DNA of 64,000 bases from Okamejei kenojei (lineage: Eukaryota): positions 15,624,001 through 15,688,000 of the forward strand of contig CM069162.1 of assembly GCA_035221665.1 (NCBI GenBank). The letters run 5' to 3'. The position numbers and the translations under genes were made by a program. Each line of letters opens with the position of its first letter. Positions within the stretch are counted from its first letter, which is position 1. Shown in pieces: positions 12,842 to 32,263 of this stretch. Below the pieces are notes generated by a model, which saw only the letters and a program-made list of their open reading frames with translations, was not told where the DNA came from and did not search any database.

Positions 12842-12982
12842 CCCCATGTGGAAGGCCCGACTTGTGACACTTGTAAACGTGGCCACTTCTTCCTGAGCAC
12901 GGAGAACAGAGAGGGCTGCCTGCCATGTTTCTGCATGGGAGTGACCCATCAATGCAGCAGCTCCCCCCACTACAGGAAACTG
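12842..12982 (+). CDS. HSPG2: Perlecan exon (PHVEGPTCDTCKRGHFFLSTENREGCLPCFCMGVTHQCSSSPHYRKL)
   Basis: ttacag acceptor, gtacgt donor, 141 nt, phase 0-0; GCLPCFCMG matches human perlecan. Confidence 0.95.
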
Positions 12983-15351: not shown

Positions 15352-15547
15352 GTCGCCAGTCCCATTTGTTCCACCAAATAACTTCCAGAACTTCTCCCTG
15401 GTGAGCCGCCAGCGCACGACACACATCACCTCCGGATTCACGGTGACGGTGAGGGAAGGCCAGCCGCAGCTCTCCTTTGGACGCTTTGGGCAGTACACCC
15501 AGGAGTCCTACTACTGGCAGCTTCCAGAAGTCTTTCAAGGGGATAAG
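15352..15547 (+). CDS. HSPG2: Perlecan exon, first part of third laminin IV (L4) module (...NFQNFSLVSRQR...QLSFGRFGQYTQESYYWQLPEVFQGDK); apparent frameshift near its 5' end
   Basis: ttctgcag acceptor, gtaatg donor; matches human FQGFALVNPQR...ESFYWQLPETYQGDK; length 196 nt is 3n+1 between two phase-0 introns. Confidence 0.9.
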
Positions 15548-18202: not shown

Positions 18203-18241
18203 CGGGAGGAATTCTTTGCTCGCATTAGACGTGGGCACAAG
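18203..18241 (+). CDS. HSPG2: Candidate 39-nt cassette exon REEFFARIRRGHK (furin-type RxRR site)
   Basis: Strong acceptor ctctcactcttattctgtccctttctgcag, donor AAG|gtagag, phase 0-0, open frame. Confidence 0.6.
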
Positions 18242-20205: not shown

Positions 20206-20531
20206 ACTACCCGCTGAACGGAATGGTGGTTTTGTGGCAACTGAATAACATGCAGAATTACATTTTAATAGAAGAACCCATCTTTAACTGAGGAGCAACT
20301 GAGAAAGGATGCCGCCATCTGGGAACTCTTGAGCTCCTCTTCGTCGCATCCTAGGCTTAAAAGATCTTCAAAGGTAGCAGTAAAACTGCATGTGGGAGTC
20401 TGAAGCTTGATTATTACTGACTGTACGTGGAGCAAGCAATATGCAAAGGAAATCTAACACCCCCCTTCGTATCTGTCTAATCAGATTATTTTGTTATTTC
20501 CAAATCTGAGCTTGTTTTTGTTCTCCATTAG

Positions 20532-22969: not shown

Positions 22970-23269
22970 TCTATGCCTGATATGGAAGAGCAGAAGCGTA
23001 TAGATGATGAAGTATGGGCAATTATAACGGGTTTTGCAGCTGAGCAGTTGCACAAACCACACAGTCCTGTCTTGTCCAGCGGCAAAAATCAGTCCCGGTC
23101 ATCGCGTCCCTTTTCTCGCCTGGCGTCAGCTGGACCTGCCGGGCCTCCTGCTCCCTCTGCCGCTCGCAAAAGTTCAGCTCATGCCGTATCCTCTCCCTCT
23201 TCAAGAACTGCCTCTTCCCATTCTTCTCTCTCCCCATCTCTGCTTTCTCAACCTGCCCACCACAAAAAG
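22970..23269 (+). CDS. HSPG2: Candidate 300-nt cassette exon: SMPDMEEQKRIDDEVWAIITGFAAEQ followed by Ser/Pro/Ala-rich segment ending HHKK
   Basis: Acceptor tcccttcacttccttgtag, donor AAG|gtatgg, exactly 100 open codons, phase 0-0, not repeat-derived. Confidence 0.7.
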
Positions 23270-24801: not shown

Positions 24802-24891
24802 ATGAAACATATCTCTAAGATCCCCTCACTGCAAGCTGAGGAATCAGCTAATCTTATTGCTTCCTCTGTGTGGGACCCAAGACCGGAGAAG
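24802..24891 (+). CDS. HSPG2: Candidate 90-nt cassette exon MKHISKIPSLQAEESANLIASSVWDPRPEK (alternative end 24900 adds VAT)
   Basis: Acceptor ttgattttccctgcag, donors AAG|gtagcc or ACG|gttagc, both phase 0, open frame. Confidence 0.5.
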
Positions 24892-25558: not shown

Positions 25559-27935
25559 CAATCGGGCTATCGTTATAAACGTTGAACAAAGCAAATAGTT
25601 TGTGTGCAATAAAGTAATAACTGAGGCCCAAAAAGGTGGCCCATTCTGTTTGTGATTTTAGCATGGAACTACATCCCTTACTGAGGAGCATGTTTATTTG
25701 ATTGATTTTCTTTGTTAGAATTGATATTTTGTGTGGCTTTGCTGTGGATTGACCCTGACATGTGTGTTTAAACTTGCTAGCGGATATTATTTTCAAATTA
25801 TATACGACTGTCCTTATTAACCATTGAGCAGAGGGGACACTTGTACGCCTTGCATCTTTAGATTTTGTTTAGTTTTAGGTTTATTATTATTATCACATGT
25901 ACCGAGGTACAGTGAAAAGCTTTGTTTTGCATGCTAACCAAGCAGATCAGATATACCATACATAGACACAATCAAGTCGAACTCAGATAATAATACAGAT
26001 GGAGCAATGGGGATGAAAGAGTGCAGAATATAATTCTCGGCATTGAAGCACATCAATTCCATAGACAAACTCCAATATCTTCAATGGGTAGAGGTGAATC
26101 AGGCAATGCCCTGGCGCAAGATATCAGCCTCTTCCTGACTTTTCATCGGAAGTAATTTGGGTTGTTGTGTTTGTCCACCGGAACCTGGTGGATTGATGTT
26201 GTTGGTCACTATTTTTAATGGCTGCTATGACAACACTGAGTGTAAGTGAACCATTGGCAATATTAAAGGCCTGCATCAGTATGATTTGATACATTTGATT
26301 GGAGGGTAATCATTTATTTATTTAATTAATTAATTGGATGCTGGGTCAAAAGATTATCAGAATGATAGTGAAAGGAGCCAAGAAATGTAACTGGATTTCC
26401 CCAACACTGGTTGATAAAACACCCCATTTTGGAACCTAACAAGCCCACAAGATCTACATGCACTCATGCCCCTTCTATTGGAAGTGAACTGCCAGAACCC
26501 TGCCGACCACCTGCCACGTTTGTACCAGATTCCTCCTATTGGAACAACCAGTTAACTATCTTGATTCGAGTTGCTATCTCTTCCAAATGGAGGCTAACCC
26601 TGGTTCTAAACATCAACAAAAAAAAAACACACAAAGTGTTGGAGTAACTCAGTGGGTCAGACAGCTTCTCTGGAGAACATGAACATGAATAGGTGATGTT
26701 TCAGGTCAGGACCCTTCTTCCTCATCTATCCAAGTTATCCAGAGATGCTGCCTGATCATTTGAGTTGCTCCAGCGCTGTGACTTTTTTTGTAAAACATCA
26801 TCTGCAGTTCCTTGTATCTCTGGTTTTAAACATGGCTGAAAGGCTATTTTATGTCCCCAGTTCATCCAGCTATTTCCCTGAATTCATAAAATAGAAGGGA
26901 GATCCTTTCACACCCGTTGGGGATTAAACATGATTGCACGTATTCTGATTTCTAACACACACACTGGTAGCAATGTTCCCTCTTCAGGTTATTTTTTACA
27001 GCAGAACAAGTGGCATTGATTAGAGTAATCTGAGACGTTGCAGAGCGCGGGGAGATGGAGAATGAATTTGGGAAATAAAGTAACGTTCCAGACATGTTTA
27101 AAACCAGGGCTGTTTTCCATCTACAGTATAAGAAATATTTTATCTCTTTAGTCCACCCACTTCCCATTGTAAAAGCTTGTTTGCAGCTCATTTTTAATCT
27201 GGAGTACGCTTAGATTCTTGTAGTCATTGTTTGCAAAATAAAATAATTTTTCAGAAAGATAAATTCCAGAATAAAATCGAAGTCTTGTCCGGTCTTCTCG
27301 ACCTGCATCTTCAACTCTTAAGACTTTCTGTCCGTTGGATATGCTTTCCATCTCTGGTGTATAGAAGTTTGAGTAACTTACATCTCTTAATAGTCAGGCT
27401 TAGTGTCACTCAAGTTTGTAAATCAGATTCTGCGTGTGGTCTGCACTCAGCTGACCATGTTAATGAGGTGAAATGGCAATGATTCAGCTAATAGGAGAGG
27501 AGGAGATGGAAATAGTCTTGAGGCCAGAAACTCAATGGGAAGGAAAGCAACCAATATTTCAAGGGGTTAACTTTTCATCTGGTTGAAGCTGAGAATGCAC
27601 AATGAAACAAATCTCATGCCTGTCTGTGTGTACCTTTTTTTTGCATAACCTTGTAAACAAAAACGCAGTACTCCTAATGCACAGTTACAGTTTAAGCTTT
27701 GAAACAAAGTCCAGCTCTCTTGTTAAAAAAGTGTCCTGTTAACAACACAGCTGTGCTCAATTTATCAACAGGAAATGAGGGATGGATACTGGGGGGTGTG
27801 GGGGGTGGGTACGACAACTCTGCTTAGTGCAATCCTAGGGTCAGAATTTGAGCCGTTTTGCTGACCATGGCTTTGCTTGCTGTTCTGTGTAAACTTTCTC
27901 TGTTCATCTTGTCTCTGCCTCTTTCTCTGTCCCAG

Positions 27936-28019
27936 TATGCTCTGCTTTACAAGGGCTTCAGCCTCCTGCCTGAAAACAATTTCTATTGGCGACTTCCTCA
28001 TCAGTACCTGGGCAACAAG
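27936..28019 (+). CDS. HSPG2: Extra perlecan exon duplicating the L4 segment: YALLYKGFSLLPENNFYWRLPHQYLGNK
   Basis: Strong acceptor gtctctgcctctttctctgtcccag, donor AAG|gtaacc, 84 nt, phase 0-0; carries the laminin IV signature YWxLPxxY/FxGxK that normally precedes VxSYGG. Confidence 0.85.
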
Positions 28020-29182
28020 GTAACCAATAGATTCCGGTAGCAGCTTAGAAAAGCCTTTGTTTCGCGCATTTGACTTTTCGTGCCAATTGGAATGAGTGAT
28101 GTGTCGTCATCTAATTTTATCATGATTGTGCCTTAGTTTTCCGTACCTTTTAACTGGTTGAAATATCCTCAGTGGTGGGGGGGGGGGGGGGGGAACGTGT
28201 CAAAGAGCTGGAATAATGCACTTATTTTTGTAAGGCAATATCTGCAGTTTCTTGTTTCTACACTACGTATTACACTGATCCTCAACGTCAAGAAGTTTCA
28301 TGGTGATACAACCTGATAAAGCAATCAGGAATAACTCACTGTCTGAAGAAGGGTCTCGACCTGAAATGTCACCTATACCGTTTCTCCAGAGATGCTGTCT
28401 GACCCGTTGAGTTCCTGCAGCTTTTTGTGTCTATACATCACCGTCTTGAGAAACTGGTGCATGATACGATTCTCCATATTACACTGGTATTGCCAGTAGA
28501 ATAACATGATGGCAGCTCCCCATGGCTGATGCCAGTCTGTGGTGAACTACTATTAATATCTTCCTCTTTAAGCAAGCTTTGGATGTTGATATGAAATGTC
28601 AGGAAGCCTTTTGAAAAACCCCACAGCTAGTGTTTACCTGCCATCCTTCCACTTCCAGCTCCAAACAGCGAATCAAGGAACATCTTCATTCAGCGGCAGC
28701 AGCTGTTAGTAGAAAATGCCAGGCTGGCTCCCATCCCTGGCATCCCCCCATTGTTCCACTTCCCTAGAACCTCGCTCCATTCCCTCGACCCGCGCTCTGT
28801 TCCTGGGAGCTGCACTCCATTCCCGAGAACCACGCTCCGTTCCACAGTTGCTGACCAGCCCCTGAGCTAATCAAGCTATGTGCAGTGCCATAGTAGTTAA
28901 TAAAAGCAGGGAATGCATTATTCAGAAAATTTACGTTTCTGAAAAGTACAAATTGAATCTACAATATATAAATTTCTATTCAACAGCTCAAAAGTCATCT
29001 TGTATAAATATCAGCTATAACCATAAAATAGCTCACAATGTTTTTGCAGTTCTCCACCTTGGCAGAGCACCCAAGTGTTGACTGAAGGGTGTACCGGTGA
29101 GACGGGTTCTCTTGCAGTGCCGATGATCCTGGTGTAACGAGGGTATGAAGCAACCTGGTAACTGGTCTGTCCTTTCCCTCAG

Positions 29183-29275
29183 GTGACATCCTACGGTGGA
29201 CGCCTTCGTTACACGCTCTCCTACGACTCGGGGTTCCGGGGAACTGCAGTACCAGATGCGGACGTCCAGATCATT
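29183..29275 (+). CDS. HSPG2: Perlecan exon, L4 module (VTSYGGRLRYTLSYDSGFRGTAVPDADVQII)
   Basis: ctttccctcag acceptor, gtacgt donor, 93 nt; resembles human VAAYGGKLRYTLSY...DPDVQIT. Confidence 0.96.
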
Positions 29276-29989
29276 GTACGTGACCGCACCTCTCTCCAAC
29301 AGCCGTGGCTCATCCAAGCTTTATGGCACTTTGTCGACGTTAAGATTTCCACCGTGTATTCTGTGCACTGGGAACAGAAATTTGGGAGTTGTCAAGTTAG
29401 CAGGGAAATGGGTTCGGACCTTTTCTGGAGAGGTGACCAGACATGGGACATGCGTCAGCTTCTAACACCGGAGGCTAGTTCCAACATCATCCTAACAGAT
29501 CATTTAACTGAATGGCCGAATGGCCTGTTTCCATACTGCATCTCTTAACTAAGTTAAAGTAAACTAAACTGAGATAGAGTAGCCCTCTCACTCATTGAGT
29601 GTGGGACTCTCATTATTCCTTCCCCCCAATGGATTTTTGAAGGTTTCCTTGAGCAAACAATCGGGCATCTCTCTTTCCCCCTCAAAAAATAAGGCTTTGT
29701 TTTATGATGCTTCGGGAATAATTGTCATTTATTCACCCTCTAGATCATTTTGTTGTCCCTGACCAAAAATTGATCCATCTGAAGAAAGGTCCTGACCTGA
29801 AACGTCACCTATCCATGCTCTCCAGAGATGCTGCCTGACCCGCTGGGTTACTTCAGCACTTTGTTTTTTCTTTGTAAACCAGTAGTTCCTTGTTTCTACA
29901 TTCTTATAATCCAGGCTGTGGAGCTATTTGCTAGGGCCACCTTGATGTACCTGTGCTCATCCTTTCAAGTTGCTGCTGGTTTGAAATGA

Positions 29990-31338: not shown

Positions 31339-31422
31339 GGTAACGATATCACCTTGGTTACCTACCACGCTCACCAGCTGAGTCCGAGAGAGACCATGAG
31401 CTTTGAGGTCATGTTCAAGGAG
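31339..31422 (+). CDS. HSPG2: Perlecan exon, L4 module (GNDITLVTYHAHQLSPRETMSFEVMFKE)
   Basis: tctttcag acceptor, gtaaag donor, 84 nt, phase 0-0. Confidence 0.95.
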
Positions 31423-32032: not shown

Positions 32033-32263
32033 CAACTTTGGAAGCGCCCAGATGGCCAGCCGGCCACCAGGGAGCATCTGCTGATGGTCCTCGCTGACCT
32101 GGATGAAGTCCTCATCCGGGCCACCTACTCGACTGACATGATCTCTGCCAGCCTCTCTGACGTGAGCATGGAGATCGCAGTGCCCTTCTACACCGGCCTG
32201 GGCCAGGCACTGGAGGTGGAAGAATGCCTTTGCCCACAGGGCTACCATGGCTTGTCTTGCCAG
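32033..32263 (+). CDS. HSPG2: Perlecan exon, end of L4 module (QLWKRPDGQPATREHLLMVLADLDEVLIRATY...ALEVEECLCPQGYHGLSCQ)
   Basis: ctcccacacag acceptor, gtgact donor, 231 nt; RPDGQPATREHLLM is diagnostic of perlecan. Confidence 0.98.

Follow-up and report, generated by a model that had tools for sequence, protein, structure and literature searches.

The closest described relatives of the element reported here are the L4 domains of perlecan and of the laminins. Perlecan (gene HSPG2), which carries the L4 domain considered here, is a secreted protein. Basement membranes and cartilage depend on it, and mutations in it occur in Schwartz-Jampel syndrome and dyssegmental dysplasia (available text of PMC6266596). 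The third L4 module of perlecan, L4-3 (PF00052), lies in a 64-kb window of Okamejei kenojei DNA, which is the whole stretch analysed. It has the same fold as 9I5A/9I5B (I876-V1272) and 4YEP/4YEQ, and in the case of perlecan the gene and the exon order are the same as well. The crystallised L4 domains are laminin domains of 181-185 residues and perlecan constructs with a single L4, and no insert of this kind is seen in them; the module in the window, in contrast, has an optional insert of 205 amino acids (aa) with a 28-residue duplicate of one of its own segments.

In laminins, L4 is inserted between Cys3 and Cys4 of an LE module in which the bonds run 1-3 and 2-4 (available part of PMC5338690). 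The function of L4 domains is called unknown in structural reviews (PMC6744579 and PMC5338690, in the parts available). Only a few uncharacterised variants of vertebrate perlecan are listed in the accessible text of PMC6266596, which covers 'miniperl' (AF479675), mast-cell forms of domains I and V, and the splicing of C. elegans unc-52. These share isoform diversity with the present case, but none of those in that text inserts sequence in frame into domain III or adds a convertase motif. The word 'furin' is absent from the accessible passages of PMC9010944. The cassette, the repeated segment and the motifs were not found described in the literature searched, a body of text with supplements and most subscription papers outside its scope.

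Two further systems can be compared. Laminin alpha2 is reportedly processed by furin in LG3, and its chains are said to stay associated. Both cases have a basic motif in a basement-membrane protein; the laminin site is constitutive, whereas the one described here would be switched on by splicing and depend on a duplicated structural segment. Alternate frame folding is an engineered switch that is built by duplicating a segment of a protein. There too, two copies compete for one place, but the perlecan cassette is natural, controlled by splicing and conserved across jawed vertebrates, and a switch between its copies within one molecule would be hypothetical.

Orthologous exons, in the same order and phase, are present in predicted isoforms from Chiloscyllium (XP_072442898.1), Xenopus tropicalis (XP_031762630.1), Rhinatrema (XP_029434740.1) and Malaclemys (XP_053865478.1, with the last exon only). 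These RefSeq and GenBank models are automatic and name no feature.

A five-exon cassette in perlecan L4-3

Five exons, A to E, almost certainly form a cassette inside perlecan L4-3. They total 615 nucleotides (nt), or 205 aa, and lie between exon U, which encodes the N-terminal part of the module, and the exon that begins at 29183 (Table 1). All five are bounded by AG and GT and are in phase 0-0; their lengths are 39, 102, 300, 90 and 84 nt. The Chiloscyllium (shark) perlecan P0128 (XP_072442898.1) has an insert of 209 aa between the counterparts of U and of the 29183 exon, and tblastn places this insert onto the five exons of the window; U itself is 92% identical to P0128 over 62 aa. Exon C has the top splice-site score in the intron, was so ranked before any homologue was known, and has a single match in the 2.76-Gb genome. 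The last 72 aa of exon C include 22 Ser, 10 Pro and 10 Ala.

Exon E (YALLYKGFSLLPENNFYWRLPHQYLGNK) has a pyrimidine-rich AG acceptor and an AAG/GTAACC donor. The original prediction described it as a second copy of the YWxLP..GxK segment that ends exon 15352-15547 (exon U), and this holds: 8 of its 28 residues are identical to the last 28 codons of U, with a BLOSUM62 score of 46 that none of 200,000 shuffles reached. The copies are far apart in DNA (34/84 identical, with 5/28 at third codon positions), as had also been claimed. Of the 227,828 28-codon frames in 114 kb, none scores above exon E apart from the resident copies of L4-3 and L4-2. The match to the upstream exon is real, and the L4-2 copy is at least as close to E (9/28 identical, score 60); the L4-1 copy scores 32. 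E was also thought to stand alone; four further exons in fact lie between 15547 and 27936. Pfam Laminin_B recognises the last 12 residues of E weakly, at model positions 1-12 (E 0.19). A PDB sequence search with E gave no match, and the 45-aa frame around E had zero matches in a protein search limited to 80-2,000 aa.

Exon E is conserved at the protein level. It is identical to its shark counterpart at 24/28 residues, and orthologues from shark to snake range from 15 to 24 of 28; a king cobra gene fragment also has the exon (15/30 identical). A tree of the 28-aa segments (28 columns) was built from 15 of 16 proteins, P0087 being left out for a motif mismatch. In this tree E forms its own clade, with support of 96/70. 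Whether E came from L4-2 or L4-3 cannot be assigned from the tree, the mean identities in the 15 proteins being 11.2 and 11.4 of 28. The separate clade and the equal distance to both modules indicate that the duplication is old, in keeping with the proposal of an old partial exon duplication under protein-level selection.

Reads or contigs from 4 of the 12 listed runs were aligned to the region 27860-29300. Contigs from two of these runs (X1 and X9) carry the junction on which the original prediction depended, a GT..AG joint from 28019 to 29183. In X5, E is on one contig, and a separate contig of 5,069 nt crosses 29183 without E. Inclusion and skipping are therefore both seen in transcripts, as they are in gene models (84 with insert, 170 skip). 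There are 0 mismatching letters in E in all of X1, X5 and X9, and 0, 2 and 2, respectively, in the next exon. All 4 sampled words of exon E are present in eleven runs of six organisms, an observation that is weak by itself; no RNA holder is listed among them. Upstream of E the contigs extend for 102 (X1), 328 (X5) and 561 (X9) letters, which do not match the adjacent intron. The X9 extension equals A, B, C and D (531) plus an overlap of 30, which we take to be that of a 31-mer graph; here the agreement is in length, not in letters. An overlap of 30 letters is also found on the downstream side of the same contigs. The X1 and X5 contigs are taken as partial.

The distribution of the cassette was followed in a protein search over 2,714-8,637 aa, of which the best 120 of 764 matches were used together with cluster members (at most 15 per cluster). 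Four W.LP motifs are present in 29 of these best 120 proteins. Inserts were delimited by BLAST-anchored parsing in 255 proteins of at least 2,700 aa: the cassette is skipped in 170, is present as a longer insert that ends in E in 76, and is reduced to E in 8; the 1 remaining protein, P0263, was misparsed. Cluster members that did not come from the ranked matches contribute 79 skip, 50 longer, 5 E-only and 1 misparsed protein to these counts. Many subsets of A-D occur among the inserts; E is always included. All 84 inserts follow exon U and end in E, so that tandem use, one of the three uses originally offered for E, is the one found in the gene models. Insert carriers include a shark genus, caecilians, axolotl, frogs, turtles, lizards, snakes and ostrich. 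The ostrich is the only bird among the distinct inserts; neognath birds may have lost the cassette, or their annotation may be incomplete.

A profile of exons A-C matched 9 of 1.84 billion representatives, none recognisably teleost, though a cluster representative may be the skip form. Four of the nine (P0367, P0369, P0370 and P0375) are unnamed open reading frames (ORFs) that cover parts of A-C. ESM Atlas gave no usable feature match for exon C or for P0369. In P0367, P0369 and P0370 the exons A, B and C are in one frame, and P0369 and P0370 continue into E; this arrangement suggests a lineage in which the cassette introns are lost or very short.

Furin-type motifs and the predicted fold

The furin consensus is R-x-[K/R]-R. 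The window contains this motif in the cassette as RIRR (site 1, exon A) and RLKR (site 2, exon B). Site 1 is R-x-R-R in 30/30 distinct inserts holding A. Site 2 is R-x-[K/R]-R in 28/34 distinct inserts holding B, and at least R-x-x-R in 30/34. In Xenopus P0126, Rhinatrema P0048 and Pogona P0051 the two cassette sites are the sole R-x-[K/R]-R in 4,300-4,550 aa; P0128 and P0062 each have one further motif, outside the cassette. Skip isoforms are depleted of the motif: past residue 60, 166 of them (related rows) average 0.23 copies per protein where composition would give 1.41, and 132 have none. Site 1 is followed by an N-glycosylation sequon in 18 of 20 distinct 8-mers, and the shark sequence is one of those without it. 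The unnamed ORFs P0370 and P0375 start inside or after site 1.

AlphaFold2 was applied to a turtle module with E only using 36 sequences, all of them two-copy, and to the shark long insert. In the turtle model, copy 1 (59-85) has a predicted local confidence (pLDDT) below 50, the blocks of E reach 60-79 and form two strands and a helix, and the first strands of U have 59-68. The model resembles laminin alpha2 L4b (4YEQ; template modelling score 0.75 by target) and perlecan 9I5A/9I5B (E about 1e-17). In the shark model the YW block of E has 72, compared with 59 for copy 1; helices are predicted in A, in B (105-120) and at the start of C, together with a disordered Ser/Pro-rich linker. In this weak model, site 2 is in a segment with pLDDT below 50 and site 1 is at the end of a predicted helix. 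The place of E in the domain core is one that we infer, because its basis is confidence and secondary structure, not coordinates; replacement of the strands of copy 1 by those of E is thus a prediction.

It is probable that the cassette is spliced in tandem with U, that E restores the fold, and that the resulting loop is cut by furin-type convertases to yield a two-chain perlecan linked through Cys2-Cys4. In the main mRNA, where 15547 joins 29183, L4-3 would fold with copy 1. In the long mRNA, which also contains A-D and E, the second copy (E) would adjoin the rest of L4 and is predicted to fill the position of copy 1 in the beta-sandwich. RIRR in exon A and RLKR in exon B would become exposed as A-D loop out together with copy 1. 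Cleavage by a convertase in the secretory pathway would free a peptide of ~34 residues between the two sites and leave a Trp helix on a linker as the new N-terminus. Domains I-II and most of III would make up one chain, and the remainder of III together with IV-V the other. The LE Cys2-Cys4 disulfide would join the two chains, and the first three strands of exon U would also hold them together. If the bonding of laminins carries over, the Cys2-Cys4 bond would span the L4 insertion and in that way link the two chains.

Several points weigh against this reading. Site 2 is lost or reduced in 6/34 distinct inserts; among the four unnamed ORFs the full motif is found only in P0367, and P0369 has lost site 1. 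Eight E-only isoforms have no furin-type site, and E is therefore usable without the loop. A frog model, P0374, has B but not E; the rest of its L4 is also missing, and the model looks broken. The proteins are automatic gene models, and their rows, which include isoforms and sister species, cannot be counted as independent. The junction covered in the transcripts is that from 28019 to 29183, not those from 15547 to A and from D to E, the upstream lengths in X1 (102) and X5 (328) are not explained exactly, and the raw-read run X12 has no read on either exon within 27860-29300, which is no evidence either way. AlphaFold2 confidence is low (mean pLDDT 59.2 for turtle and 47.9 for shark, with only 2/5 turtle models above 50), and AlphaFold may simply prefer whichever copy has a contiguous sequence.

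If the cleaved, tandem form is real, splicing decides between a one-chain and a two-chain perlecan, through a cassette that has persisted in cartilaginous fish and in amniotes alike, and a partial exon duplication would be a clear natural case of a structural spare part. The cassette places near-only furin motifs of perlecan in L4-3, which gives L4 a testable role. If mammals use the cassette, variants in A-E could escape analyses built on the main transcript. A broader proposal is doubtful, and is put forward tentatively: the long form may be a splicing-activated pro-form of perlecan in jawed vertebrates, a natural instance of alternate frame folding in which duplication of a strand pair lets a pro-region loop out. 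The conserved helical exon-B peptide of ~34 residues would be freed by two convertase cuts, and the conserved exon-C Trp helix would be unmasked on a Ser/Pro-rich tether. L4 would then take part in signalling or binding in tissues that express Rbfox, for example nerve or muscle.

This mention of Rbfox stems from TGCATG motifs, which are of the Rbfox type. Four are found within 250 nt after the five cassette exons, compared with 0.6 expected (P about 0.003, post hoc), and one of the four is inside a stretch resembling a short interspersed element (SINE). There are none after 7 constitutive donors. The motifs near B and D hint, from sequence, at Rbfox-type regulation of the cassette.

Alternative readings

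An uncleaved loop would account for some of the same features. The Arg clusters and the two helices would then bind heparan sulfate or a protein partner, the furin-like appearance would be incidental, and E would repair the fold as before. Exon A is very basic and is conserved past the motif (A, R, R, R, H and K are invariant in the alignment), and the decay of site 2 in 6/34 inserts and the unnamed ORF without site 1 are also consistent with such a loop. It is nevertheless unlikely, as the R-x-[K/R]-R spacing is exact at two places while the flanks diverge freely, R41 and R44 are invariant, and the rest of perlecan is depleted of the motif.

Cleavage could also separate perlecan entirely into a free N-terminal half bearing heparan sulfate and a C-terminal half, each with one copy of the segment. 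The exon order does leave the N-terminal piece with copy 1 and the C-terminal piece with copy 2, and reviews mention uncharacterised N- and C-terminal products of perlecan (PMC6266596, accessible part). This outcome is quite unlikely, given that in laminins the L4 insertion is bridged by the LE Cys2-Cys4 bond (PMC5338690, accessible part) and that the first strands of U are ordered in the model (pLDDT 59-68), so that the halves should stay linked.

The remaining uses first suggested for E, in mutual exclusion with exon 15352-15547 or as the start of a shorter product, the latter here from an internal promoter, are very improbable: the phases are compatible, exon C has ATGs at 22973/22982, an ATG is found just upstream of E, and the X1, X5 and X9 contigs extend upstream by 102-561 letters that the main contig lacks, but all 84 inserts come after U and end in E, depth is zero on 27860-27908 in every aligned run, all three contigs begin at the acceptor, and 561 equals cassette plus overlap. 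It should be noted that the search ranked proteins with three L4 domains first, so rare short forms could escape it, and that contigs cannot show starts, of which rare ones may occur.

Three specific candidates were set aside. An internal promoter became improbable once four more exons had been found with a summed length that fits X9. Replacement of the 3' part of U through donors after 15400 or 15448 conflicts with the proteins, which hold all of U, and with the contigs, which align through the AG at 27934-27935; this alignment fits an upstream exon that ends in AG, as D does, and not the donors in question. An ORF upstream of E (27867-27935) resembles a signal peptide, with an in-frame ATG, a good Kozak context and a hydrophobic run of 23 codons, but it has no depth in the three runs that cover E. 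The hydrophobic run is probably the pyrimidine tract read as protein.

Locus and minor features

The window contains the end of perlecan domain III and the first immunoglobulin (Ig) exons. Modules L4-1 and L4-2 are upstream of the window, and the module within it is L4-3: it has Laminin_B (PF00052) within LE repeats, is the third of three, and is followed by Ig repeats. The features are listed in Table 1.

Table 1. Exons and motifs of the perlecan L4-3 region in the Okamejei kenojei window.
Feature	Position	Strand	Description and evidence
LE exon, constitutive	12842..12982	+	Cys1-Cys3 of the LE module hosting L4-3; translation, splice sites
Exon U	15352..15547	+	N-terminal part of L4-3; last segment is copy 1 of YWxLP..GxK
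Cassette exon A	18203..18241	+	39 nt, phase 0-0, REEFFARIRRGHK; RIRR at 18221-18232; 12/13 identical to P0128
Cassette exon B	20272..20373	+	102 nt, phase 0-0; predicted helix, then RLKR at 20353-20364; 29/34 identical to P0128
TGCATG	20387..20392	+	14 nt after exon B; motif count, post hoc
Cassette exon C	22970..23269	+	300 nt, phase 0-0; conserved Trp helix, then Ser/Pro/Ala-rich linker; 63% identical to P0128
Cassette exon D	24802..24891	+	90 nt, phase 0-0; linker, conserved ESxNL-like motif; tblastn 48% to P0128
TGCATG	24907 and 24933	+	16 and 42 nt after exon D; motif count, post hoc
Cassette exon E	27936..28019	+	84 nt, phase 0-0; copy 2 of the L4 segment, predicted replacement strands
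L4-3 exon (VTSYGG...), constitutive	29183..29275	+	Pfam Laminin_B positions 13-43; depth in X1, X5, X9
L4-3 exon (GNDITLV...), constitutive	31339..31422	+	AG/GT, translation
Exon closing L4-3, LE Cys4 onward, constitutive	32033..32263	+	Pfam Laminin_B 76-136, E 3e-17

The start of exon U is irregular. The exon is 196 nt long and the preceding donor, 12982, is in phase 0; the first codons of U are for this reason out of frame in this assembly, and a phase-0 reading runs for 9 codons before it meets a stop. In the part that corresponds to 15352-15390 there are 12 residues in shark homologues, and this assembly has a net excess of one base there, which could be either an assembly error or a null allele. 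There is an in-frame alternative acceptor for U at 15389.

Repeats are found in two introns. An ORF of 448 codons of reverse-transcriptase type, by eye similar to a long interspersed element (L014:1496-2839), lies in an intron of perlecan L4-2. The intron after exon E contains a SINE-like repeat (28341-28434) with very deep contig and read coverage in all four runs.

Exon B (DAAIWELLS, 20272-20373) and the start of exon C (DDEVWAIIT, 22970-23030) encode similar Trp helices in shark and ray, with a tblastn cross-match at E 7.6. Their likeness in sequence weakly suggests a second, small internal repeat in the cassette.
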